Below are positions 4,009-55,271 of a stretch of DNA of 64,000 nt, one piece after another. The position numbers and the translations under genes are program-made. The first letter of the stretch is position 1. Each line of letters opens with the position of its first letter. The notes under the pieces are model-generated. The model was given only the letters and a program-made list of their open reading frames with translations, was not told the origin of the DNA and did no database searches. The stretch lies in the sequence record MK047718.1; one strand, written 5' to 3'. This DNA is from Escherichia phage p000y.

Positions 4009-4539
4009 ATGAAAACTGTAATTGAAACAACCGAGTTGTTTGGCGATTTATGTATCGAAAAACGTGGTTATGCTTACGTTCTGACACAAGAAGATGATGC
4101 TGTTACTATTCTTCCTATGGAACTGGACAAGATTTTGAAACTCAATCCGCCCGGCCATGCATCTGTAATTAACATTGATGAAGACCTTCAAGTTCGTTTT
4201 TATCACGGTCTTTATAGTGGGGTTAATATCGAAACAGAAGATGAATGCCTTTCTATCAATAATTGGAAAACATTCGTCACTAAGGTGAAAGAATTAATGG
4301 AATCTGAAACAGCCAAAAAGGCCAAACTTCAATGGGCTAAATGCCGTAATGCTTTTATTACAAATCAGGACCGCCCTGACTATACAACAGTCCTAGGCGT
4401 TAATCCTTCTTATGAAGACGGTGATGTCGTAGTTATTCGCCAAATTGATGACCTTCGTCAACATATCATTACATTAGACAAAGATGAAGCAGTTGCTCTT
4501 AAAGCTTATCTTGATTCTATTATCCCAACCTTGAAATAA
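4009..4539 (+). CDS. Hypothetical protein, 176 aa
   Basis: ATG 4009 (the track ORF begins at an upstream TTG). Confidence 0.45.
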   Translation: MKTVIETTELFGDLCIEKRGYAYVLTQEDDAVTILPMELDKILKLNPPGHASVINIDEDLQVRFYHGLYSGVNIETEDECLSINNWKTFVTKVKELMESETAKKAKLQWAKCRNAFITNQDRPDYTTVLGVNPSYEDGDVVVIRQIDDLRQHIITLDKDEAVALKAYLDSIIPTLK

Positions 4540-4549
4540 GGAAATTATT

Positions 4550-5023: not shown

Positions 5024-6009
5024 TGAAAACAATTATGAAAGGCTACTTTGGTAGCCACCTTTATGGAACGTCTACTCCTGAATCTGACGTCGATTTTAAA
5101 GAAATTTATGTCCCTCATGCTCGTGATATCTTGACCGGTAACGTTAAAGAACACATGAGCAAGAACACTAACAACACTGCTTCTAAGAACACAAAAGACG
5201 ACGTGGACCATGAGTTGTATAGTCTCAAATATTTCTTTAAACTAGCTGCAGATGGTGAAACCGTCGCATTAGATATGCTTCACACCCCACAAAGTCTAGT
5301 AGTTAAATCTGATTTGCCTGATGTATGGAAGTATATTCAAGATAACAGGTCTCGTTTCTATACCACTAACATGAAATCTTATTTAGGGTATGTCCGTAAG
5401 CAAGCTTCTAAATATGGTGTCAAGGGTTCTCGACTGGCTGTTCTTCGTCAAGCCCTTAAACGTTCTAATGAATGGGGACAATACTTTGATAATGGTGCAG
5501 TAATTCGTTTATCACATATGAAGAACGTTCTGCCTGTAGGTGAATTTGCTTCATGGGTTGAAACCGAAAACGAGAAAACAGGTAAGCAAACATTCTATAA
5601 TCTGTTGGACCGTAAATTCCAAGACACGTTAACCAATAAAGAGTTCAATGCCATCCTGGTTAAACTGGAAGAGAACTATGGTGAACGTGCTCGTAAGGCG
5701 GAAGCCAACGAAGGTATTGACTGGAAAGCATTGAGTCATGCATGTCGTGGTGGACTTCAACTATTGGAAATTTATAAAACCGGTGACTTGGTTTACCCAC
5801 TTCAGGATGCTCCATTTATTCTCGATGTTAAGCTTGGTAAACATACGTTTAAAACTGTACAAGAATTCCTAGAAGATATTGTTGACCAAGTTGAACATGC
5901 GTCAGAACAAGCTGCCAAGAATGGTATGCAACAAAAAGTAGATATGAGTTTCTGGGATGATTTCCTTGAGCAAGTCTATCTCGAAAATCATAATTCTTAC
6001 TATAAATAA
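5020..6009 (+). CDS. Pol-beta-superfamily nucleotidyltransferase-fold protein, 329 aa
   Basis: GS-x(n)-DhD motif GSHLYGTSTPESDVDF plus a downstream acidic ETVALDML, the hallmark of minimal NTases; ATGA-coupled to the membrane protein. Confidence 0.5.
   Translation: MMKTIMKGYFGSHLYGTSTPESDVDFKEIYVPHARDILTGNVKEHMSKNTNNTASKNTKDDVDHELYSLKYFFKLAADGETVALDMLHTPQSLVVKSDLPDVWKYIQDNRSRFYTTNMKSYLGYVRKQASKYGVKGSRLAVLRQALKRSNEWGQYFDNGAVIRLSHMKNVLPVGEFASWVETENEKTGKQTFYNLLDRKFQDTLTNKEFNAILVKLEENYGERARKAEANEGIDWKALSHACRGGLQLLEIYKTGDLVYPLQDAPFILDVKLGKHTFKTVQEFLEDIVDQVEHASEQAAKNGMQQKVDMSFWDDFLEQVYLENHNSYYK
6001..6008 (+). promoter_or_regulatory. Candidate late promoter (TATAAATA)
   Basis: Exact TATAAATA about 33 nt upstream of the 6041 start. 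Confidence 0.35.
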
Positions 6010-6040
6010 ATAGATAAATAACCATTCACTTGAGGTAAAT

Positions 6041-12471: not shown

Positions 12472-12824
12472 CATATTCATTAAATCTTAAAGATTTCCAA
12501 GATGTATACGAAGTTTGTGCCAATGAACTTGGTCCTGATGCTCCAACTATTATTGAAGTTTTAAATGTGCTCCCTTCGTCATTAGCTTACGAAGCCAAAT
12601 CATGGGGTTGGAACGACACTGTCGTTCGTGATGACCTTTACGTCCTGATGAACGATATGATGGTTAAAAAGGCAGAACCGGTTGCACCAATGGTTACCAT
12701 TACCGTTGAAGAATATAATCGCCTGCAAGCCATTGAAGAGCTTCTGTGGAACATTGAATGTGACCTGCCATCAGGGCTAGAATCCTGGATTGATTATGAA
12801 GAGCTCAATAAACTCCGGGGTTAA
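12468..12824 (+). CDS. Hypothetical protein, 118 aa
   Basis: ATGA-coupled to nrdC. Confidence 0.45.
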   Translation: MTYSLNLKDFQDVYEVCANELGPDAPTIIEVLNVLPSSLAYEAKSWGWNDTVVRDDLYVLMNDMMVKKAEPVAPMVTITVEEYNRLQAIEELLWNIECDLPSGLESWIDYEELNKLRG

Positions 12825-12873
12825 ACCGTGGTATTCTGCTCGATGGGAGACTGTCGAGCCAGACGTCGAAACA

Positions 12874-12903
12874 GTTTACAACGACGAAGAAACATGTTAT
12901 GAT
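12874..12903 (+). promoter_or_regulatory. Early promoter (GTTTAC, TATGAT)
   Basis: GTTTAC 12874-12879, 18-bp spacer, TATGAT 12898-12903. Confidence 0.45.
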
Positions 12904-12952
12904 GAACCTTCAATAAATGAATTAATTGATATGGAGATGGGAAGAGATTATT

Positions 12953-13123
12953 ATGCAAGTTAAATTATTGTACCGTTTATTAAAAAATGGCAAGCACGAT
13001 TGGTATTTGCTTATTAAAACCGATCCGAATTTTTTCTCTGGGCAACCATTTACAGTTCGTCCTACTAAACGTCAGCTTCGCAAAGCTAAACGTTCTCATC
13101 GTAACTTTTATAGAGAATATTGA
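12953..13123 (+). CDS. Small basic protein, 56 aa (paralogue of 13548-13727)
   Basis: C-terminus RPTKRQLRKAKRSHRNFYREY resembles RPTKKMIRQYKRFHRDFYNVY in the downstream ORF. Confidence 0.4.
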   Translation: MQVKLLYRLLKNGKHDWYLLIKTDPNFFSGQPFTVRPTKRQLRKAKRSHRNFYREY

Positions 13124-13729: not shown

Positions 13730-13760
13730 TATAAATACCCTTATCTATTTAAGGTAAGGG
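13730..13760 (+). promoter_or_regulatory. Late promoter TATAAATA plus RBS-sequestering hairpin upstream of gene 49
   Basis: TATAAATA 13730-13737; inverted repeat CCCTTA (13738-13743) / TAAGGG (13755-13760) covers the Shine-Dalgarno. Confidence 0.55.
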
Positions 13761-14240: not shown

Positions 14241-16054
14241 AAATTGAAAAAGAAATTGAAGGATTAATTCGTAAAACTAATAAAGATCTTTTGAACGAGA
14301 ATGCTAATAAAGATTCTCGTGTTTTTCCAACTCAACGGGACCTTATGGCTGGTATTGTGTCTAAGCACATTGCCAAAAATATGGTCCCGTCTTTTATTAT
14401 GAAAGCGCATGAAAGTGGAATTATCCATTTTCATGATATTGATTATTCCCCTGCTCTTCCATTTACTAATTGCTGTTTAGTAGATTTAAAAGGAATGCTT
14501 GAGAACGGGTTTAAGCTTGGTAATGCGCAGATTGAAACACCTAAATCAATCGGTGTTGCTACTGCAATTATGGCACAAATTACTGCGCAAGTTGCTTCTC
14601 ATCAATATGGCGGAACGACTTTTGCGAATGTAGATAAAGTACTTTCTCCTTATGTTAAACGCACCTATGCAAAACATATCGAGGACGCGGAAAAATGGCA
14701 AATCGCTGATGCACTGAATTATGCTCAATCTAAAACAGAAAAAGATGTATATGATGCATTCCAAGCTTATGAATATGAAGTAAATACTCTCTTTAGTTCA
14801 AACGGGCAAACGCCTTTTGTAACGATTACATTTGGTACAGGAACTGACTGGGCTGAGCGAATGATTCAGAAGGCAATTCTTAAAAACCGCATTAAAGGTC
14901 TCGGCCGTGATGGAATAACTCCTATTTTCCCTAAGCTTGTTATGTTCGTTGAAGAAGGCGTTAATCTTTACAAAGACGATCCGAACTATGATATTAAACA
15001 GCTTGCTCTAGAGTGCGCAAGCAAAAGGATGTATCCTGATATTATTTCAGCTAAGAATAATAAAGCTATCACCGGTTCATCTATTCCTGTTTCTCCGATG
15101 GGTTGCCGTAGTTTCTTGAGCGTATGGAAAGATTCGACTGGTAATGAAATTCTTGATGGACGTAATAATCTTGGTGTTGTAACGCTGAATCTTCCTCGCA
15201 TTGCGTTAGATTCTTATATTGGAACACAATTTAACGAACAGAAATTTGTTGAATTATTCAATGAACGAATGGATTTGTGTTTTGAAGCTTTGATGTGTAG
15301 AATTAGTTCTTTAAAAGGAGTTAAAGCAACTGTTGCTCCTATTCTTTACCAAGAAGGTGCATTCGGGGTTCGTCTTAAACCGGATGATGATATAATTGAG
15401 TTATTTAAAAACGGTAGAAGTTCAGTGTCCCTAGGATACATTGGTATTCACGAATTGAATATTCTTGTTGGTCGTGATATTGGACAAGAAATTTTATCTA
15501 AAATGAATGCTCGTCTTAAGCAGTGGACTGAAAGAACCGGATTTGCTTTTAGCTTGTATTCTACTCCTGCTGAAAACTTGTGTTATCGCTTCTGTAAACT
15601 TGATACCGAAAAATATGGAAGTGTAAAGGATGTTACTGATAAAGGCTGGTACACTAACAGTTTCCATGTTTCAGTAGAAGAAAATATTACTCCGTTTGAA
15701 AAGATTTCCCGCGAAGCCCCATATCATTTCATTGCGACAGGTGGTCACATTTCTTATGTTGAACTTCCTGATATGAAAAATAACCTAAAAGGTCTTGAGG
15801 CTGTATGGGATTATGCTGCACAACATTTAGATTATTTTGGTGTTAATATGCCAGTAGATAAATGTTTTACATGTGGAAGTACCCATGAAATGACTCCGAC
15901 TGAAAACGGATTTGTTTGTTCAGTTTGTGGAGAAACTGATCCTAAAAAGATGAACACAATAAGAAGAACATGCGGCTACCTGGGAAATCCGAACGAACGC
16001 GGATTTAATCTCGGTAAAAATAAAGAAATAATGCATAGGGTTAAACACCAATGA
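14237..16054 (+). CDS. nrdD: Anaerobic ribonucleoside-triphosphate reductase NrdD
   Basis: 605 aa; glycyl-radical motif RTCGYLG and C-terminal zinc ribbon CFTCGS...CSVCG; no intron interruption. Confidence 0.92.
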   Translation: MKIEKEIEGLIRKTNKDLLNENANKDSRVFPTQRDLMAGIVSKHIAKNMVPSFIMKAHESGIIHFHDIDYSPALPFTNCCLVDLKGMLENGFKLGNAQIETPKSIGVATAIMAQITAQVASHQYGGTTFANVDKVLSPYVKRTYAKHIEDAEKWQIADALNYAQSKTEKDVYDAFQAYEYEVNTLFSSNGQTPFVTITFGTGTDWAERMIQKAILKNRIKGLGRDGITPIFPKLVMFVEEGVNLYKDDPNYDIKQLALECASKRMYPDIISAKNNKAITGSSIPVSPMGCRSFLSVWKDSTGNEILDGRNNLGVVTLNLPRIALDSYIGTQFNEQKFVELFNERMDLCFEALMCRISSLKGVKATVAPILYQEGAFGVRLKPDDDIIELFKNGRSSVSLGYIGIHELNILVGRDIGQEILSKMNARLKQWTERTGFAFSLYSTPAENLCYRFCKLDTEKYGSVKDVTDKGWYTNSFHVSVEENITPFEKISREAPYHFIATGGHISYVELPDMKNNLKGLEAVWDYAAQHLDYFGVNMPVDKCFTCGSTHEMTPTENGFVCSVCGETDPKKMNTIRRTCGYLGNPNERGFNLGKNKEIMHRVKHQ

Positions 16055-17625: not shown

Positions 17626-17807
17626 ATGACAATTGAAGATAAAGAATTAAGGTCGACCAGTACTATTCTGTCAACGGTAATGCAGTACAGATAACCAGAG
17701 TTTCAAGCCTGGATGTTTGGTACCGTTCAATCAAATATCCAGAAATTGGTGAAATGCTTTGTGACCGTGGTATCTTCTGTTCAATTGCGAAGGAAATTAA
17801 GCCATGA
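17626..17807 (+). pseudogene. Small gene apparently split by a frameshift (ATG 17626 in one frame, 55-codon open continuation in another)
   Basis: RBS GAGGAAA upstream of ATG 17626, which stops after 22 codons at 17692; the frame starting at 17643 is open to TGA 17805-17807 and ATGA-coupled to the next gene but has no start codon. Confidence 0.35.
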
Positions 17808-18052
17808 TTAGTTTAGACTCAAAGAAAGTTGTTCTAACCCTTAAAGTTAATGACGAGCGACTGGTATTCATTACCATTTCCGATTTACATGTTGAAATTG
17901 CTAATGGCGTCCGTACTTATCAAACGACTAAAACACAATGGGATTATATCCCGATGTTGACGCTTACTCAGCGTTTAGAATCAATCGGTCTTAAAGACCT
18001 TTCAGTAAGTGAAGTGAATTTTATCAAACGTGTCGTATCAATCAACCTCTGA
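17804..18052 (+). CDS. Hypothetical protein, 82 aa
   Basis: ATGA-coupled ORF. Confidence 0.45.
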   Translation: MISLDSKKVVLTLKVNDERLVFITISDLHVEIANGVRTYQTTKTQWDYIPMLTLTQRLESIGLKDLSVSEVNFIKRVVSINL

Positions 18053-39057: not shown

Positions 39058-40500
39058 GTGGTAGAAATTATTTTGTCTCATCTAGTATACGACCAGGCTT
39101 ATTTTTCTAAGGTCTGGCCTTATATGGATTCTGAGTATTTTGAGCGTGGACCGGCAAAAAATGTCTTTAAAATTATAAAGAGCCACGTTAACGAATATAA
39201 TGCAATGCCATCTATCAATGCGTTAAAGGTGGCTTTAGATAACAGTTCTTTAACTGAAGCCGAATATAAAGGAACTTCAGACCTAATTGAAAAATTGGCT
39301 GATACTCCTGAAGACCATGAGTGGTTGGTTAAAGAAACTGAGAAATATGTCCAGCAAAAAGCGATGTATAATGCTACATCCAAAATCATTGAGATTCAGT
39401 CTAATGCTGAACTACCTCCAGAACAACGTAACAAGAAAATGCCTGACGTAGGAGCTATTCCTGATATTATGCGTCAAGCACTTTCAATTTCGTTCGATAG
39501 TTATGTTGGACATGACTGGATGGAAGACTATGAAGCACGCTGGCTTTCTTATCTAAATAAAGCACGTAAGGTCCCGTTCAAATTAAACATTCTTAATAAA
39601 ATCACCAAAGGTGGCGCAGAAACAGGTACACTGAACGTTTTAATGGCCGGTGTTAACGTTGGTAAATCTTTAGGCCTTTGTTCACTTGCTGCAGATTATC
39701 TTCAAACAGGACATAATGTTCTTTATATTTCCATGGAAATGGCTGAAGAAGTTTGTGCTAAGCGTATAGATGCAAACATGCTTGACGTATCACTCGATGA
39801 TATCGATGATGGTAACGTATCTTATGCTGAATATAAAGCCAAGATGGAAAAATGGCGTTCAAAAACAACATTAGGACGTTTAGTAGTTAAACAGTATCCT
39901 ACTGGTGGAGCTAATGCTAATACATTTCGTGCATTGCTTAATGAGTTAAAACTTAAGAAGAACTTTGTGCCATCTGTAATCATGGTTGATTACTTAGGTA
40001 TTTGTGGGTCTTGTCGTATCAGAGTTTACACTGAAAATAGCTACACATTAGTTAAAGCTATCGCAGAAGAACTTCGTGCATTAGCAGTAGAATCTGAAAC
40101 AGTTCTATGGACTGCAGCTCAAGTAGGACGTGCAGCATGGGATGCTTCAGACATGAACATGAGTGATATCGCAGAATCGGCAGGTTTACCAGCAACGGCA
40201 GATTTCATGTTGGCTGTAATTGAAACCGAAGAACTTGCACAAGCTGAACAACAACTTATCAAACAAATCAAATCACGATACGGCGATAAGAATAAGTGGA
40301 ATAAATTCCTGATGGGTGTACGTAAAGGCAATCAGAAATGGGTTGAGATTGAGCAAGAAGGCATGAACACACCTAACACAGTAAATGAAAACGCAGGTGC
40401 TCAGATGCGTCAGGCAGAGGTGAATCGTACGGAACGCGTAGGTAAAGCCAAAGCAACACGTGCTGACCTAGATAGCTTAGCCAATGAGTTAAAATTTTAA
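39058..40500 (+). CDS. 41: Replicative helicase gp41 (DnaB-like)
   Basis: 480 aa, GTG start; MVEIILSHL..DQAYFSKVWPYMDSEYFE, Walker A GVNVGKS. Confidence 0.92.
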   Translation: MVEIILSHLVYDQAYFSKVWPYMDSEYFERGPAKNVFKIIKSHVNEYNAMPSINALKVALDNSSLTEAEYKGTSDLIEKLADTPEDHEWLVKETEKYVQQKAMYNATSKIIEIQSNAELPPEQRNKKMPDVGAIPDIMRQALSISFDSYVGHDWMEDYEARWLSYLNKARKVPFKLNILNKITKGGAETGTLNVLMAGVNVGKSLGLCSLAADYLQTGHNVLYISMEMAEEVCAKRIDANMLDVSLDDIDDGNVSYAEYKAKMEKWRSKTTLGRLVVKQYPTGGANANTFRALLNELKLKKNFVPSVIMVDYLGICGSCRIRVYTENSYTLVKAIAEELRALAVESETVLWTAAQVGRAAWDASDMNMSDIAESAGLPATADFMLAVIETEELAQAEQQLIKQIKSRYGDKNKWNKFLMGVRKGNQKWVEIEQEGMNTPNTVNENAGAQMRQAEVNRTERVGKAKATRADLDSLANELKF

Positions 40501-40505
40501 TAAAA

Positions 40506-40523
40506 AGGAGACTTCGGTCTCCT
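40506..40523 (+). terminator. UUCG-tetraloop hairpin after gene 41
   Basis: AGGAGAC-TTCG-GTCTCCT followed by TT. Confidence 0.5.
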
Positions 40524-40529
40524 TTCGGG

Positions 40530-40558
40530 GTTTACATCTTCCTCTAGGCATGATATGA
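40530..40558 (+). promoter_or_regulatory. Early promoter (GTTTAC, TATGAT)
   Basis: GTTTAC 40530-40535, 17-bp spacer, TATGAT 40553-40558. Confidence 0.5.
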
Positions 40559-40588
40559 TGAACTTACACCAACCAAGAGGAAAACATT

Positions 40589-40963
40589 ATGAATATGTCT
40601 CAAGCAATTTTTACTGCAATCACCGAAAACACAACTGTTGAAGTAGTTTCTCCACTGGCAACCTACGTTATTCTTGCTCCTAAAACTATTGTATCTCGTA
40701 TGGAAAACATGGGCAAACGTATCGTACAAATAGTTGGAGCTGGAAATCAAAAACTTGATTATCTACGAACCATCAAAGCTTATGAACATTTCCAACTCGA
40801 AAAAGGTTCTCCTATCCAGGTAGAACTCGTAAATGGTGATATCGTTCGAGCAATGTTCCATCATTTCTATGCATTGAATGACCCATCTAAAGCGGTTCGT
40901 TTAATTGCATACGACGCAAACCAAAAAGAAATCAACGCAGATGTATCTAAATTACGTTTTTAA
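40589..40963 (+). CDS. Hypothetical protein, 124 aa
   Basis: RBS AAGAGGAAA upstream. Confidence 0.45.
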   Translation: MNMSQAIFTAITENTTVEVVSPLATYVILAPKTIVSRMENMGKRIVQIVGAGNQKLDYLRTIKAYEHFQLEKGSPIQVELVNGDIVRAMFHHFYALNDPSKAVRLIAYDANQKEINADVSKLRF

Positions 40964-41010
40964 GTTTACTTCTCCAGTAGTTGTGTTATTATAGACCTAT
41001 CAACTACTGG
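40964..41010 (+). promoter_or_regulatory. Early promoter inside a 10-bp inverted repeat (PeSL-like)
   Basis: GTTTAC 40964-40969, TATTAT 40987-40992; CCAGTAGTTG ... CAACTACTGG flank the -10. Confidence 0.55.
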
Positions 41011-41018
41011 AGAACAAA

Positions 41019-41336
41019 ATGAAAACCATCGATTGTAAAGCAGAATTTAAGATTTTTTATCACGGTTCAAGTAGTTCAGCTAACATCGAAAACATGCTTT
41101 GTCCTCCTGAGGAAACAGGAGTTCTGTCTGAAACTGGACGTAAGAAAAACTTGGATCGTGTATTCTTTACTGAAGATATCGGTTTAGCAAAGATTTATGC
41201 AGGACGAGCGGCACGCTCTTATGGAGGTGAACCACGTCTCTATCGAGTAATTTCTCCGGTAGACGTAGTTCAAATGAATAATACTAAAGGTGCTACAGTT
41301 TATCACGCTGAATGGGCATTTTGCGAGGAAATATGA
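41019..41336 (+). CDS. Hypothetical protein, 105 aa
   Basis: RBS GGAGAA upstream. Confidence 0.4.
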   Translation: MKTIDCKAEFKIFYHGSSSSANIENMLCPPEETGVLSETGRKKNLDRVFFTEDIGLAKIYAGRAARSYGGEPRLYRVISPVDVVQMNNTKGATVYHAEWAFCEEI

Positions 41337-41521
41337 GCAAATTAACTAAAATTACTTTTATTGGCTGGTTTAAAAGCGGTGAGATGTTCACTAAAGATAT
41401 CATGTTATCAGGTGATCGTGAAGAAATCGAGTGGGTTGCGGTACAACTTGCTGAAGTAAACAATGCATTAGTTAAAGCATTTATTAATGACGAGAAAGTT
41501 TTTGAAGCAGATTTTCGATAA
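41333..41521 (+). CDS. dmd: Dmd-like antitoxin (discriminator of mRNA degradation; anti-RnlA/LsoA)
   Basis: About 62 aa; ...FIGWFKSGEMFTKDIML...VAVQLAEVNNALVKAFINDEKV... reads as T4 Dmd; located just downstream of gene 41 as in T4. Confidence 0.65.
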   Translation: MSKLTKITFIGWFKSGEMFTKDIMLSGDREEIEWVAVQLAEVNNALVKAFINDEKVFEADFR

Positions 41522-41534
41522 TTTTAAAATAACT

Positions 41535-41564
41535 GTTTACAAGCACCGCATACTGTGTTACTAT
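41535..41564 (+). promoter_or_regulatory. Early promoter (GTTTAC, TACTAT)
   Basis: 18-bp spacing. Confidence 0.45.
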
Positions 41565-41592
41565 CTTTCTATCAACTACAGAGGAAATTGAA

Positions 41593-41961
41593 ATGAAAAA
41601 ATTAATCGCTTTAGCAATGGTATTTGGATTAACCGGATGTGGTGCCCACGGCTTTATCCCTAATAACGTTGGCCAACTGATTTACAATCCGAATGTTAAA
41701 CAGTACGACCAACCTAAAGTTGAAGTGGAAGATCCGGTTACTGTAGGTAATCGAATGATTCAAGCTGATGCTCATGCTCAACGTTATCGTGATTCTGATA
41801 CTGTAGCATTGTCAAAAGAACAACGCGTTAAAGAACATTGTCTACAGGCTACTGAAATCGCATTCATTCGCTATGTTGAAACAACTGGTAAAGAGCCTAC
41901 CCAGAAACAAATCGCGAATAACTACGTCCAGTGTATTGAACGTTTAAACAAATTTAATTAA
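41593..41961 (+). CDS. Lipoprotein, 122 aa
   Basis: Signal peptide with lipobox LTGC (MKKLIALAMVFGLTGCGAHG). Confidence 0.55.
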   Translation: MKKLIALAMVFGLTGCGAHGFIPNNVGQLIYNPNVKQYDQPKVEVEDPVTVGNRMIQADAHAQRYRDSDTVALSKEQRVKEHCLQATEIAFIRYVETTGKEPTQKQIANNYVQCIERLNKFN

Positions 41962-42022
41962 TTGGTTTACGCAAAAGTTAAAACAAGATACTATAAACAT
42001 AACAAATCAAGAGGAAATTAAC

Positions 42023-42271
42023 ATGGAATTATTCGTAGCTAGTTCAGTAGCAGTTTTAATCGCAGGTATTGGTTCAATCATCATTTACATGTTGCCTTGG
42101 GTAATCGCACTTATTCGTGGCACAAAAAGCACAACAGCAATCTTCTTTGTATCTTTACTCTTTAACTGGACGATGATTGGTTGGATTGGAACTTTAATTT
42201 GGTCTATCGTTGCCGAAAAGAAATCTGCTCAGCAGCCTCAACAAGTAATTATTATTCGCGAAAAAGAATAA
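42023..42271 (+). CDS. Small membrane protein, 82 aa
   Basis: Two hydrophobic helices. Confidence 0.45.
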   Translation: MELFVASSVAVLIAGIGSIIIYMLPWVIALIRGTKSTTAIFFVSLLFNWTMIGWIGTLIWSIVAEKKSAQQPQQVIIIREKE

Positions 42272-42275
42272 ACTT

Positions 42276-42310
42276 GTTTACATTATAGATGGACTATAGT
42301 ATAGTAGTCC
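42276..42310 (+). promoter_or_regulatory. Early promoter with stem-loop (PeSL-like)
   Basis: GTTTAC 42276-42281, TATAGT 42300-42305; GGACTA/TAGTCC inverted repeat. Confidence 0.5.
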
Positions 42311-42334
42311 TATCAAATCAACTAAGGAGTTAAA

Positions 42335-42628
42335 ATGAAAAAGTTATCATTGGCAGCAATCTTACTTGCAGTATCATGTGCACCGGCTCCAGTTACGGCA
42401 GGTTATGATAAAGACCTCTGTGAGTGGTCAATGACTGCAAATCAAGAAGATGTTGAACAACAAATCTTCTCTGATATCATGAACATCACTAAACGAGACC
42501 GTCCTAATATGGTTAATAAAGTTGTTGAACAACTTAAGTCTGGTGGTATCATGCAGTACAACTATGTTTTGTATTGTGACCCTAATTTCGATAACAAAGA
42601 TATCGTAACCGAAATCACAGGTGAATAA
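42335..42628 (+). CDS. sp: Periplasmic protein, 97 aa; candidate Spackle (sp) superinfection-exclusion protein
   Basis: Signal peptide MKKLSLAAILLAVSCAPA; size and position relative to 41/61 match T4 sp. Confidence 0.4.
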   Translation: MKKLSLAAILLAVSCAPAPVTAGYDKDLCEWSMTANQEDVEQQIFSDIMNITKRDRPNMVNKVVEQLKSGGIMQYNYVLYCDPNFDNKDIVTEITGE

Positions 42629-42629
42629 T

Positions 42630-43280
42630 ATGATTTATTATATGCACAAAAACGCACCATTTAAATATGGTAAATTTCCTAATGCACAATGTTATAATAT
42701 AACGCCGAACGAAAATAATAACGGATATCATATTGGTGTAATTTTTGTAATTGTTAAAGATAACGAAATCATTGCCTGGGCCGATTTTAAAGGTACAACA
42801 TATGATGTTAATCCTGTGCCTTTCACATATTACAATATAATGGATTTGGCATATGATTATAATTGGTTTAATCATGACACGTTGGCTCATATTGAAGGTG
42901 TAGGATTTGACATCTCTTATTCTAGCTATTCATTATGTCCTATGAGCCGAGCTCACGGTAAAGATGTATCATATCTTTCAATTCGGAAACGTGTAAACTT
43001 CAAACGTAGTACAGAGTATGTTGGTGGACTCTTTGTTAAAGATAATAAAATAACCCGTATTAGTTATCCTTTAAGTGTAGGTCAAAAAGATGTTGACGTT
43101 GATTTGGACTTAACTGAAAATAACATTAATCGTATTGCTTCTGTATATTTTGATATCGATGAAAAAATTGTAGTGTGTGGATACGAATTACCACCTGAAG
43201 AAAAGGCTGAAGCAATTGAAGTCGAATTAGAAATTTCTGTTGATGACCAAATATTTAATGCATTTATGAATCGAGGTTAA
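42630..43280 (+). CDS. Hypothetical protein, 216 aa
   Basis: ATG 42630 (the track ORF starts at GTG 42621). Confidence 0.4.
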   Translation: MIYYMHKNAPFKYGKFPNAQCYNITPNENNNGYHIGVIFVIVKDNEIIAWADFKGTTYDVNPVPFTYYNIMDLAYDYNWFNHDTLAHIEGVGFDISYSSYSLCPMSRAHGKDVSYLSIRKRVNFKRSTEYVGGLFVKDNKITRISYPLSVGQKDVDVDLDLTENNINRIASVYFDIDEKIVVCGYELPPEEKAEAIEVELEISVDDQIFNAFMNRG

Positions 43281-43281
43281 A

Positions 43282-43479
43282 ATGACTACTGCAATTTGCA
43301 CTGGTTCTAAAATTAGTGTTTTTACAAGTTTTGAAGATTATGAAGTTGTTTCAAAACACCAATGCCATATTAGCGTAAAAGCTAATGACGGTGTAATTTG
43401 GAATATTCCACAGTATGAAGGCACTACATATGAAGTCACAGATATAAATGGTAACAAAGCAATCTTTGTAATTGATTAA
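43282..43479 (+). CDS. Hypothetical protein, 65 aa
   Basis: ORF directly after the previous stop. Confidence 0.35.
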   Translation: MTTAICTGSKISVFTSFEDYEVVSKHQCHISVKANDGVIWNIPQYEGTTYEVTDINGNKAIFVID

Positions 43480-43498
43480 ATATACTCAGGAGGTACCT

Positions 43499-43966
43499 AT
43501 GGGTATTATTAACACTGCAATAGATTCTGTTTACGCATATAAGTTTATTCGACTAATGCAAAAACCTTTTACCGAATGGAAAGCATACGAAGCCAAAATC
43601 ATCGATGAACGTGGAAGTGTTCTTAAACGCCCTTCCACTCCTGAAGAGAAAGCGGCTTATACACCTTTTCATGCTTCAGTTCGTTCAATGAAGCGAATGA
43701 TGAACACTGTTCCAGGTCTTAATGGAATGGCATCAATGATGTCTGCCTGGAGTGCTGTAGCATCCCGCTATAACATTACAGAAGAACAGCAGAAAGAAAT
43801 ATTTAAAGAACTCCCTTTATTTGAGGATATGGTGGCTGGTGATTCAGGTGGCAGCCCTCAAGCTATTGCATCAGGAACAACCACAGGTGCAGTCGTAAAT
43901 AAAGGTCCAGAACAAATTCCTTCCAAGAAAAGAAAGCGAATTAAAGTAAATATTAATAAGTTGTGA
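43499..43966 (+). CDS. Hypothetical protein, 155 aa
   Basis: RBS AGGAGG upstream of ATG 43499. Confidence 0.45.
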   Translation: MGIINTAIDSVYAYKFIRLMQKPFTEWKAYEAKIIDERGSVLKRPSTPEEKAAYTPFHASVRSMKRMMNTVPGLNGMASMMSAWSAVASRYNITEEQQKEIFKELPLFEDMVAGDSGGSPQAIASGTTTGAVVNKGPEQIPSKKRKRIKVNINKL

Positions 43967-44005
43967 TATGATGGCCTTATTAATTTAAGGCCTCTGGAGA
44001 ATACT

Positions 44006-45028
44006 ATGGCTGAATGGATAGATAATGAATTTGCTTATCGTGCGTTTTCTCACCTCCCTCGTTTTAGACAAATCAATAATTCAAGCACATTTAAATTAAC
44101 GTTTCGTTGTCCAGTTTGTGGCGACTCCCAGACAGATGCAATGAAAGCTCGCGGATGGTATTATGGCGGTACTCCTGGTAATGTACATTGCTATAACTGC
44201 CAATACCACAATACAATTTCCGGATACTTAAAAGAGTATGATGAAGAGCTTTATCGCGAATATCTAATGGAAGTTCGTAAAGAAAAAGCTAGAATGGAAC
44301 CGAAGATTGAAAAGGTTCCTGAACATAAACCAGAACCGGAGAAAAAGACTATAAATTCTTTGCCGTCTTGTTCTCGTCTGGACAAACTGCCTGAAGAGCA
44401 TCCTATTGTGAAATATGTTAAGTCTCGGTGTATTCCTAAAGAATCGTGGAATAGATTATGGTTCACATTAGAATGGCCTAAATTGGTCAACAAGATTCAA
44501 CCTGGTACGTATAAGAAAGAGATTCCCGAGCCACGTTTAGTGATTCCTATTTTTAATAAAGACGGGAAGGCCGAGTCATTCCAAGGACGTGCACTTCGTA
44601 AAGATGCTCCTCAGAAATATATCACTATTAAAGCGTTTGAGTCTGCAACAAAAATTTATGGTGTTGAACGTGTTAAGGAAGGAGACGTCTGGGTAATGGA
44701 AGGCCCTATTGATAGTTTATTCATACCCAATGCAATCGCTATTACAGGCGGCTCAATAGATTTAGATGTGGTACCATTTAAAGAACGTCGGGTATGGGTA
44801 ATGGATAATGAACCTAGGCATCCAGATACTATAGCTCGCATGAAGCGATTAGTTGATGCAGGCGAACGTGTCATGTTCTGGGACCGAGCTCCATGGAGAT
44901 CAAAGGATGTGAATGATATGGTAATGAAAGAAAATGCAACACCACAAGAAATTTTAGAATATATGAAACAGAATATTTCAAGTGGGTTGCATGCTAAAAT
45001 GAGATTATCTCGTTATTCGAAGATTTAA
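44006..45028 (+). CDS. 61: DNA primase gp61
   Basis: 340 aa; zinc ribbon CPVCGDS...CYNC and TOPRIM region. Confidence 0.9.
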   Translation: MAEWIDNEFAYRAFSHLPRFRQINNSSTFKLTFRCPVCGDSQTDAMKARGWYYGGTPGNVHCYNCQYHNTISGYLKEYDEELYREYLMEVRKEKARMEPKIEKVPEHKPEPEKKTINSLPSCSRLDKLPEEHPIVKYVKSRCIPKESWNRLWFTLEWPKLVNKIQPGTYKKEIPEPRLVIPIFNKDGKAESFQGRALRKDAPQKYITIKAFESATKIYGVERVKEGDVWVMEGPIDSLFIPNAIAITGGSIDLDVVPFKERRVWVMDNEPRHPDTIARMKRLVDAGERVMFWDRAPWRSKDVNDMVMKENATPQEILEYMKQNISSGLHAKMRLSRYSKI

Positions 45029-45222
45029 ACAAGCCCTATAATAGCAAAGGCCAAATCAACTACAGTATCCAATGGAACAGAAGGAACTATAATACCATGG
45101 GCAACTAACAATGGTGCAATCCCGAAGTTCCATGAAATAATGCCACCTACAACTATTGCAGCGATAGCAGTTTTCTTTTTATTGCCTTTAATAGCGTTGA
45201 TTAACGATGGAAGTTTAAACAT
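45025..45222 (-). CDS. Small membrane protein, 65 aa, on the reverse strand
   Basis: Only ORF in the 61-56 intergenic gap; strong RBS TAAGGAG 8 nt upstream of ATG on the minus strand; two hydrophobic helices; convergent stop overlap with gene 61. Confidence 0.5.
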   Translation of the reverse strand: MFKLPSLINAIKGNKKKTAIAAIVVGGIISWNFGIAPLLVAHGIIVPSVPLDTVVDLAFAIIGLV

Positions 45223-45310
45223 AATATCTCCTTAGTTACCTATTATTTATTACGCTTTATAAAATTAATGTTAGAATTAACTCTCTTATATTGAATTGAA
45301 AGGAAAAATA

Positions 45311-45832
45311 ATGGCACACTTTAACGAATGTTCACAACTTATTTCCGGTGTTGATAAAGCAGAAGAAGCTTATTTTAATGCTCTGATTCACGAAGATAAA
45401 GACCCACTGCAGGTAATGCTTGATATGCAGAAATCTTTACAGGTTCGTCTGGCAAATGACAAGCCTGAACATAACAAACATCCTGATGAATTGGCCACTG
45501 CTGGTGATGTTGTTGATTGGCTGCGTAATCAGAAAGATTATATTGATGATGAATTTCGTGAACTGCTGACTTCACTTGGTGGTATGAGCAACGGTGAAAA
45601 AGCCGCCAGCAGTGTATGGAAGCCGTGGAAGGCACAACATGCTGAATATCGTAATCGTCGTATTGATGAACTGTCTCCTGAAGACCAGCTCGAAATTAAA
45701 TTCGAAATGATTGATATTCTGCACTTCGTTCTGAACATGTTCCAAGGTCTGGGTCTTTCTGCTGAAGAAATCTTTAAACTGTATTATCTGAAGAATGCTG
45801 AAAACTTTGCTCGTCAAGACCGAGGTTATTAA
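45311..45832 (+). CDS. 56: dCTPase/dCTP pyrophosphatase gp56 (MazG-like)
   Basis: 173 aa from ATG 45311 (RBS AAGGAAA); MAHFNEC...DPLQVMLDMQ...LANDKPE...LSPEDQLEIKFE...AEEIFKLYYLKNAENFARQDRGY reads as T4 gp56. Confidence 0.9.
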   Translation: MAHFNECSQLISGVDKAEEAYFNALIHEDKDPLQVMLDMQKSLQVRLANDKPEHNKHPDELATAGDVVDWLRNQKDYIDDEFRELLTSLGGMSNGEKAASSVWKPWKAQHAEYRNRRIDELSPEDQLEIKFEMIDILHFVLNMFQGLGLSAEEIFKLYYLKNAENFARQDRGY

Positions 45833-46005: not shown

Positions 46006-46219
46006 TTTTTATGCATGGCAAAAAGCCGGGAGACCGGCTAATAAAGCATTCGGCTCTGATGGATATAATACTAGACTCCACTGGAAATTTAATACTCCAG
46101 ATGATTATTCTCCGGTAATAATTAACGGTGATGTTGTTATATTAGCTAAATTCGGATATTTTATTGTCCCGAAGAAATTCATTATAAATACACCTGTAAT
46201 TAAACAACAAAGGAGTTAA
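45995..46219 (+). CDS. Hypothetical protein, 74 aa
   Basis: ATG 45995 within the track ORF 45881-46219. Confidence 0.35.
   Translation: MKLDFYAWQKAGRPANKAFGSDGYNTRLHWKFNTPDDYSPVIINGDVVILAKFGYFIVPKKFIINTPVIKQQRS
46183..46190 (+). promoter_or_regulatory. Late promoter TATAAATA upstream of soc
   Basis: Exact TATAAATA 32 nt before the soc ATG, with RBS AAAGGAG; consistent with soc being a late capsid gene. Confidence 0.55.
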
Positions 46220-54861: not shown

Positions 54862-55271
54862 TGGCTAATAAATTCCGCGTTAACTCATGGTACCAATTTA
54901 AAGATAAACGTGCCCAAGAAGAGTTTATTAAGGACCACACCGATAATGGTATTTATGCACGACGTCTTGGCATGGAACCATTTAAAGTATTAGATGTTGA
55001 CCATCTTGGTCGTCCTACTAAAATTGTGACATCTACTGGCATGGTTGGATACGCGACAGGTGGTGATATCCTTGATGAAAACTTTATCTGGCTCTCCACG
55101 AATGAAGCAGAGTTTTTTGATGAAGTGGGAAATCCGTATCAAGCGTCCGAAGAGCAAGATTCTGGTGAACTTGACGAATTGTCTGAATTTCCGGTGATGA
55201 CAATTACTATCGAAAATAACGACCAGGCATGGTCTTTGTATCAAATGTTGAAAGCACATTTTAAGGAATAA
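54861..55271 (+). CDS. Hypothetical acidic protein, 136 aa
   Basis: TAATG overlap start. Confidence 0.4.

Follow-up and report, generated by a model that had tools for sequence, protein, structure and literature searches.

The T4-type phages carry holin T, the antiholins RI and RIII, and spanins, holin T being 218 amino acids (aa) long. The consensus of their late promoters, TATAAATA, lies at -13 to -6, and in relatives of T4 its first T shows poor conservation (A or T) (Nolan 2006, PMC1524935). The closest described counterpart of the gene analyzed here was listed in the 2003 annotation of phage RB69 as RB69ORF029w (NP_861719). We examined a 64,000-nucleotide (nt) stretch of Escherichia phage p000y (sequence record MK047718.1; hereafter, the window), in which a coding sequence (CDS) on the minus strand at 45025..45222 starts with ATG and encodes a 65-aa protein (MFKLPSLINAIKGNKKKTAIAAIVVGGIISWNFGIAPLLVAHGIIVPSVPLDTVVDLAFAIIGLV) of PHROG 2024. 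This open reading frame (ORF) is the ortholog of RB69ORF029w and of moha_156 from phage moha. The RB69 protein has the same length, is encoded at the same position between genes 61 and 56 on the opposite strand, and carries a single substitution relative to the window protein (I61V); RB69ORF029w and moha_156 represent the same gene in closely related Mosigvirus phages, with no difference of substance. The reading that we favor overall, and consider probable, is that the ORF is a Tevenvirinae gene that is driven by a late promoter and encodes a single-pass membrane protein.

The window protein matched phrog_2024 with an E-value of 1.9e-27, residues 1-65 aligning to positions 1-65 of the 65-position profile. 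As evident from the tblastn results, the ORF was present in 692 phage records, with query coverage of at least 80% in 685 of the 692, and the identities were ~95-100% in Mosigvirus, ~54% in Tequatrovirus, including T4, and 45-50% in Gaprivervirus. The conserved counterpart in related phages, which the initial annotation had proposed as a check of this gene, was thus found, and eight Tevenvirinae genera were represented. A word-indexed protein search with a single-sequence query recovered close relatives only. When 1.84 billion representative proteins were searched with a profile, nine matches were obtained, all of them small phage-type ORFs; those followed up by tblastn mapped to T4-like phages. 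Because this large search gave only phage-type matches, the family, at the level of profile similarity, is one without detectable cellular relatives. By tblastn and annotation, the distant matches belonged to Gelderlandvirus (S16 gp16.1), Kanagawavirus (CIP9 and PEi20), Moonvirus (NM4.3) and Jiaodavirus (KpnM6E1), whose versions likewise match PHROG 2024, and an unannotated copy was found in Dhakavirus JS98 with a local hidden Markov model. No copy was present in the 15-18 kb around the primase gene of RB49 (Krischvirus), KP15 (Slopekvirus) or 44RR (Biquartavirus), all of which lie outside the Tevenvirinae; in these three phages, gene 61 directly adjoins gene 56 or denV. Taken together, the comparative sequence data indicate that the ORF is a true protein-coding gene, confined to the Tevenvirinae and orthologous to RB69ORF029w.

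In each of the eight genera examined the frame was open, even where identity to the window protein fell to ~30-34%; the Klebsiella-type member P0078, in particular, was 34% identical to the moha protein, which is identical to the window protein. Pairwise codon analysis of the window and T4 copies revealed 31, 12 and 41 differences at codon positions 1, 2 and 3, respectively, with a ratio of nonsynonymous to synonymous substitution rates (dN/dS) of ~0.1. One within-genus pair showed 5, 0 and 10 differences at the corresponding positions, position 2 being the most conserved, and dN/dS ranged from 0.1 to 0.47 over all inter-genus pairs. These codon-phased substitutions and the dN/dS values (mostly ~0.1-0.4) revealed purifying selection on the ORF. 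The residues W31, N32, F33, P37, G43, P47, V55, D56, A60 and L64 were invariant in the 33 aligned sequences. The window protein contains the whole family motif, namely a basic cluster, a transmembrane helix with W-N-[FY], a Pro, a G and P..[DE], and the distant versions in Gelderlandvirus, Kanagawavirus, Moonvirus, Jiaodavirus and Dhakavirus retain W-[ND]-[FYL]..P.A..G..P..[DE]. Additionally, the gene was located between gene 61 and gene 56 (or dam), convergent with gene 61, in all eight Tevenvirinae genera sampled, and a strong Shine-Dalgarno (SD) sequence (AAGGAGG or GGAGG) was present at the same place in all homologs examined.

In the window, the ORF is convergent with gene 61 (DNA primase; 44006..45028, plus strand) and divergent from gene 56 (dCTPase/dUTPase; 45311..45832, plus strand). 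A 65-aa reverse-strand ORF between the primase and dCTPase genes was the central claim of the initial annotation, and its ATG start and limits were confirmed. The strong ribosome-binding site (RBS) that had been reported, TAAGGAG, was read from the sequence at 45228..45234 of the minus strand (plus-strand letters ctcctta), 5 nt ahead of the ATG at 45222-45220; the intervening minus-strand letters at 45223-45227 are ATATT. We also found the convergent stop overlap with gene 61 that had been described: the gene 61 stop TAA occupies 45026-45028 and the ORF stop TAA is the complement of 45025-45027, so that TTAA at 45025..45028 is common to both strands. The same 4-nt overlap was observed in RB69, T4, S16, CIP9, NM4.3 and JS98, and a gap took its place in CJ20 and KpnM6E1. 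The ORF had been said to fill an otherwise empty gap of 270 bp; the region at 45029-45295 is indeed the largest stretch of the window that is not covered by a plus-strand ORF in an ORF-based census, but the exact interval from the gene 61 stop to the gene 56 ATG (45311) is 282 nt.

On the minus strand of the window, 69 ORFs reach 60 aa or more, so the length of the ORF is uninformative by itself. The ORF at 45025-45222 was the sole member of this set with both an ATG and a strong SD, and it lies within a plus-strand gap, which bears out its earlier description as the only convincing minus-strand ORF in 64 kb. Among the minus-strand ORFs of 40 aa or more, just one other lies inside a plus-strand gap, at 12821-12958 (45 aa); it has a TTG start, lacks an RBS and was judged unconvincing. 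The 2.3 kb surrounding the ORF showed 98.5% identity to Mosigvirus phages (RB69-like, T4-type) such as moha, Shf125875 and NicPhage, and positions 1832-64000 of the window were collinear with phage moha at 96-98% identity. In the equivalent 64 kb of moha, moha_156 is the sole minus-strand CDS of ~120 annotated. A separate difference between the two phages was the homing endonuclease gene moha_103 (14992-15876 of the extracted moha locus), located between nrdD and nrdG and missing from the window (~15990-16051), which looks like a typical mobile-element polymorphism.

The initial annotation proposed that the opposite orientation implies separate regulation, possibly late, and the upstream sequence is in agreement with this proposal. 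A T4 late-promoter-like box, AATAAATA, was found at 45244..45251 on the minus strand, 21 nt before the ATG, with one deviation from the consensus, at the first position. Transcription would start near 45238, giving a predicted leader of ~16 nt. The region upstream of the ORF thus has the features by which a T4-type late gene is recognized, namely a TATAAATA-type box at about -13 to -6, a short leader and an RBS. In every lineage checked (eight genera), a box of this type (NATAAATA, or ATTAAATA in two genera) was present 12-22 nt ahead of the ATG. In particular, the box is AATAAATA in the window, all Mosigvirus, JS98 and some Tequatrovirus phages, GATAAATA in T4, CATAAATA in Gaprivervirus, PEi20 and KpnM6E1, and ATTAAATA in S16 and NM4.3; CIP9 has the perfect consensus TATAAATA. 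The box was retained despite diverged flanks and a differing upstream neighbor (dam in T4, gene 56 elsewhere). No sigma-70-type promoter match was found on the minus strand upstream of the ORF.

We also found that the core of the box is rare in the window. The 7-mer ATAAATA occurred at 9 sites on the two strands, compared with 30 ± 5.9 expected from shuffled sequences. Seven of these sites, at five loci (2610, 2833, 6002-6020, 13731 and 46184), are on the plus strand, each 20-30 nt ahead of an RBS and ATG; the genes concerned are rI (2833, AATAAATA), gene 49 (13731), soc (46184) and two other ORFs, which are hypothetical. The minus strand contains only two, one at 45244 before the ORF and one at 54950. 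Because the motif is depleted and its sites are nearly all placed before an RBS and ATG, it is highly predictive in the window, and the early region seems to have been purged of stray late promoters. Late and independent transcription is the best-supported reading of the ORF and is well supported in silico, since its box is conserved and the few other sites of the motif lie mostly before known late genes. We also noted two of the other sites. The minus-strand box at 54950-54957, CATAAATA, is internal to a plus-strand gene and is followed by neither an RBS nor an ORF; it may represent a chance match or an antisense late promoter. At 6002-6020 on the plus strand, three late-type boxes, TATAAATAAATAGATAAATA, overlap or adjoin one another and form an unusually redundant late promoter ahead of an ORF whose start resembles a signal peptide (MKKLVIGLFA...).

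To describe the architecture of the protein, an AlphaFold2 model was obtained from the 33-sequence alignment, which had a predicted local distance difference test (pLDDT) score of 85.5 and contained helices at residues 3-11, 15-41 and 51-61. Hydrophobicity analysis revealed a single membrane-spanning window (~19-41) in every subfamily, and the published transmembrane prediction for RB69ORF029w likewise gives a single helix, at 21-41 (Nolan 2006 supplement). The net charge was +5 in the N-terminal segment and -2 in the tail after the transmembrane helix, which, according to the positive-inside rule, places the N-terminus inside and the C-terminus outside. The predicted helix and this asymmetry of charge across it support the initial description of a membrane protein. 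Two hydrophobic helices had been proposed, however, and only one transmembrane segment was found. The second, C-terminal stretch (TVVDLAFAIIGLV at the C-terminus) comprises 13 hydrophobic residues preceded by two Asp residues; its summed insertion energy, over 19 residues, was +9.4 kcal/mol, compared with +2.4 kcal/mol for the transmembrane helix, and in S16 and CIP9 the stretch is polar, containing Lys, His, Glu or Arg. A two-helix hairpin was rejected, as the C-terminal stretch is too short for a span and polar in S16 and CIP9, and as the helix that AlphaFold2 placed at 51-61 has 11 residues. The number of membrane helices is essentially the one point on which the initial annotation did not hold. 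We infer that the product is a single-pass inner-membrane protein with an N-in/C-out topology.

To understand whether the protein resembles any characterized protein, several collections were searched. Pfam, NCBIfam and PADLOC yielded no match at threshold with the window protein or the distant members, and a sequence profile search of the Protein Data Bank (PDB) returned 0 matches at E<=1. A Foldseek comparison with BFVD revealed family members only, one of which was labeled 'Holin' without support.

The mechanism that we propose is as follows. The ORF would be transcribed alone from the slightly off-consensus T4-type late promoter AATAAATA, which RNA polymerase programmed by gp55, gp33 and gp45 would read once replication starts, and translation would proceed from the strong SD. 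The 65-aa product would insert into the inner membrane as a single-pass protein, with a basic N-terminal amphipathic helix (net +5) on the cytoplasmic side, one transmembrane helix at ~19-41 and a 24-residue acidic tail (HG..P..P.D plus a short helix) at the periplasmic face. An Asn that is conserved midway along a transmembrane helix is usually a sign of helix-helix association. Because such an Asn is conserved mid-membrane in this family, where an invariant Trp-Asn-Phe/Tyr is followed by a Pro five residues on, we propose that the helix acts by self-association or by binding a partner helix of the phage or the host. The most likely role would be to modulate, without being essential, a late step at the envelope, of which lysis timing, lysis inhibition and membrane-linked assembly are examples; this assignment is a guess, and we offer it only tentatively.

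Several points weigh against this explanation. The published late-promoter prediction for RB69 (Nolan 2006) lists none at this ORF. The box departs from TATAAATA in all copies examined but that of CIP9, at the first position and, in S16 and NM4.3, also at the second, and because of these deviations the promoter may be weak. In the literature searched, we found no transcript, ribosome-profiling or proteomic evidence for the ORF, and nothing on the ORF itself, RB69ORF029w, unannotated T4 ORFs or late antisense transcripts at the locus; a T4 omics paper (PMC9697503) leaves the region unmentioned. Additionally, the protein has no similarity to a characterized protein in Pfam, NCBIfam, PADLOC, the PDB or BFVD, so that the functional role is proposed without support from homology. 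Finally, frameshifted copies were present in T4_ev240 and ERS-1. The former has a 1-nt deletion (~1456 of the extracted locus) in the A-run encoding the Lys cluster, and the latter a 2-nt insertion (~1640) near the 3' end. These frameshifts may be sequencing errors or a sign of a dispensable gene and were not used as evidence.

Four other explanations were weighed against the data. That the ORF is a chance frame in an AT-rich spacer, the DNA being conserved as the 3' end of the primase gene, the gene 56 promoter or an origin region, might be suggested by the number of minus-strand frames of at least 60 aa that arise by chance in the window (69) and by the omission of the gene from the reference annotations of T4, JS98 and PEi20. 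This explanation is very improbable and is already contradicted by the conservation data, as judged from sequence comparison: the frame is open in all eight genera to ~30-34% identity, the only disrupted copies seen being the two frameshifted records, the substitutions are codon-phased, and a strong SD precedes every copy examined. An early or constantly expressed membrane protein, acting in superinfection exclusion or anti-defense like imm and sp and having only a fortuitous box upstream, would fit the position of the gene in the early region close to imm and sp, the early expression of many small T4 membrane proteins and the deviation of the box from TATAAATA. We regard it as unlikely, because the minus strand upstream of the ORF contains no sigma-70-type match, whereas a late-type box is held at a fixed distance in eight genera despite diverged flanks and an exchanged neighbor (dam or gene 56), and the motif is otherwise depleted and mostly found at known late genes.

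A third explanation places the function in the RNA, with late antisense transcription into gene 61 and the upstream early/middle operon shutting both down by interference or duplex RNA and the peptide being secondary. The stop-stop overlap with gene 61 is kept in most genera and no minus-strand intrinsic terminator is predicted downstream of the ORF (40000-45025); however, purifying selection on the amino acids and the invariant polar residues are unexplained by a role of the RNA only, and the GC hairpin of Jiaodavirus and the 118-nt spacer of Gaprivervirus indicate that read-through into gene 61 is not conserved, so that this explanation is improbable. The product might also be a holin or core lysis protein that accumulates late in the membrane and forms or directly controls the lethal hole. 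In favor of this, the product is a small membrane protein that has at least one transmembrane helix and is probably expressed late, the vB_EcoM_OE5505 homolog is labeled 'Holin' in UniRef/UniProt and BFVD, and one distant member gave a sub-threshold match to GTA_holin_3TM (E=0.1, 13.6 bits against a cutoff of 24.8). No holin family was matched at threshold in Pfam, PHROGs or NCBIfam, however, and the other named cluster members that were inspected are all 'hypothetical'. The C-terminus TVVDLAFAIIGLV is hydrophobic and acidic, in contrast to the charged, hydrophilic tail typical of holins; the neighbors (primase, dCTPase, soc.2, soc.1 and soc) form a replication and nucleotide context with no adjoining endolysin or spanin gene, and the T4-type phages are already supplied with a holin, antiholins and spanins. 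A holin is thus quite improbable, and the 'Holin' label was rejected as unsupported by a profile match, a charged C-terminal tail or a lysis-gene context. A late-transcribed, single-pass membrane protein remains the explanation that we prefer.

The 88-nt spacer between the ORF and gene 56 also contains a candidate control element of the neighboring gene. At 45250..45277 on the plus strand, ttaCGCTTTA, a 12-nt spacer and TAGAAT form a putative MotA-type middle promoter for gene 56, which is a motif match only and stands back to back with the late box, sharing two bases with it; the MotA consensus is (a/t)(a/t)(a/t)TGCTTtA at 12 ± 1 bp from the -10 element (PMC2988021). As the gene 56 transcript is annotated in the T4 record as the primer of the origin oriA, the spacer may, by analogy, also be origin-related. 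Terminator prediction yielded no intrinsic terminator close to the ORF on the plus or the minus strand, the latter being covered from 40000 to 45025, so a late transcript would run antisense into gene 61 unless otherwise stopped. Gaprivervirus has a 118-nt spacer between the ORF and the primase gene, and Klebsiella phage KpnM6E1 (extracted locus 1693-1715) has a GGGGC-TTTG-GCCCC hairpin between the two stops, which looks like a bidirectional terminator or RNA-stabilizing hairpin replacing the stop-stop overlap; read-through is, in view of this spacer and this hairpin, not a conserved feature. No Rfam match at E<=1 was found in 44700-45500. The locus represents a compact case of back-to-back promoters of different temporal classes combined with convergent genes that share their stop codons.

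The gene is already known and catalogued and hence is not new: its entries are RB69ORF029w, moha_156, PHROG 2024 and pVOG VOG1982, none of them with an assigned function, and the exact window protein occurs on 217 contigs in public data, named 'hypothetical protein' each time. Its copies are nevertheless left unannotated in the RefSeq records of T4, PEi20 and JS98; the T4 copy is annotated in a Pyrodigal-based T4 record. The T4 copy, at 17738-17938 of NC_000866 (plus strand), encodes 66 aa with 54% identity to the window protein and has an AAGGAGG SD and the box GATAAATA, and T4 RefSeq has no annotated gene in the 310-nt gap between dam and gene 61. The other unannotated copies are located at 4344-4544 in JS98 and ~1495-1680 in PEi20 (extracted-locus coordinates). 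Omics studies that rely on the reference annotation are blind to the T4 protein. The points of modest interest are this omission from three reference genomes, including T4, the conserved late-type box and primase stop-stop overlap, and the back-to-back late and middle elements. Late transcription, lysis control and membrane-linked assembly all have T4 as their reference phage, and adding the ORF would provide a small, easily testable candidate in the phage that has been studied best. It is conceivable, though doubtful, that an overlooked late gene of T4 encodes here a membrane microprotein missing from a late envelope-linked process, such as lysis timing controlled by holin T and RI, lysis inhibition or the anchoring of membrane-bound assembly through the Asn-containing helix, with antisense transcription into gene 61 as a possible second output. 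If the gene proves dispensable and without phenotype, it would merely be one more small accessory membrane protein.

We compared the ORF and its product with the distant family members and with the known late genes. S16 gp16.1, CIP9 gp133 and KpnM6E1 gp010 (a 'putative membrane protein') have the same synteny, convergence with the primase gene, late-type box and strong SD as the window, and a common architecture: a basic N-terminus, one helix with W-N-[FY] and Pro, and a G..P..[DE] tail. They differ in their low similarity, their longer and partly acidic N-termini and their more polar C-terminal helix, and KpnM6E1 has the hairpin. Holin T and the antiholin RI are late inner-membrane proteins with an N-in, single transmembrane helix, which the ORF product would resemble in its predicted late timing and topology, and the rI gene of the window has the same promoter variant, AATAAATA, as the ORF. 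The ORF product has, however, no sequence or profile similarity to holins or RI, no large periplasmic domain, no charged C-terminal tail and no lysis context. Like soc (box at 46184) and gene 49 (box at 13731), the ORF is a gene with a late-type promoter inside the long early/middle block of the window; whereas soc and gene 49 are on the early-gene strand, the ORF alone is on the opposite strand.

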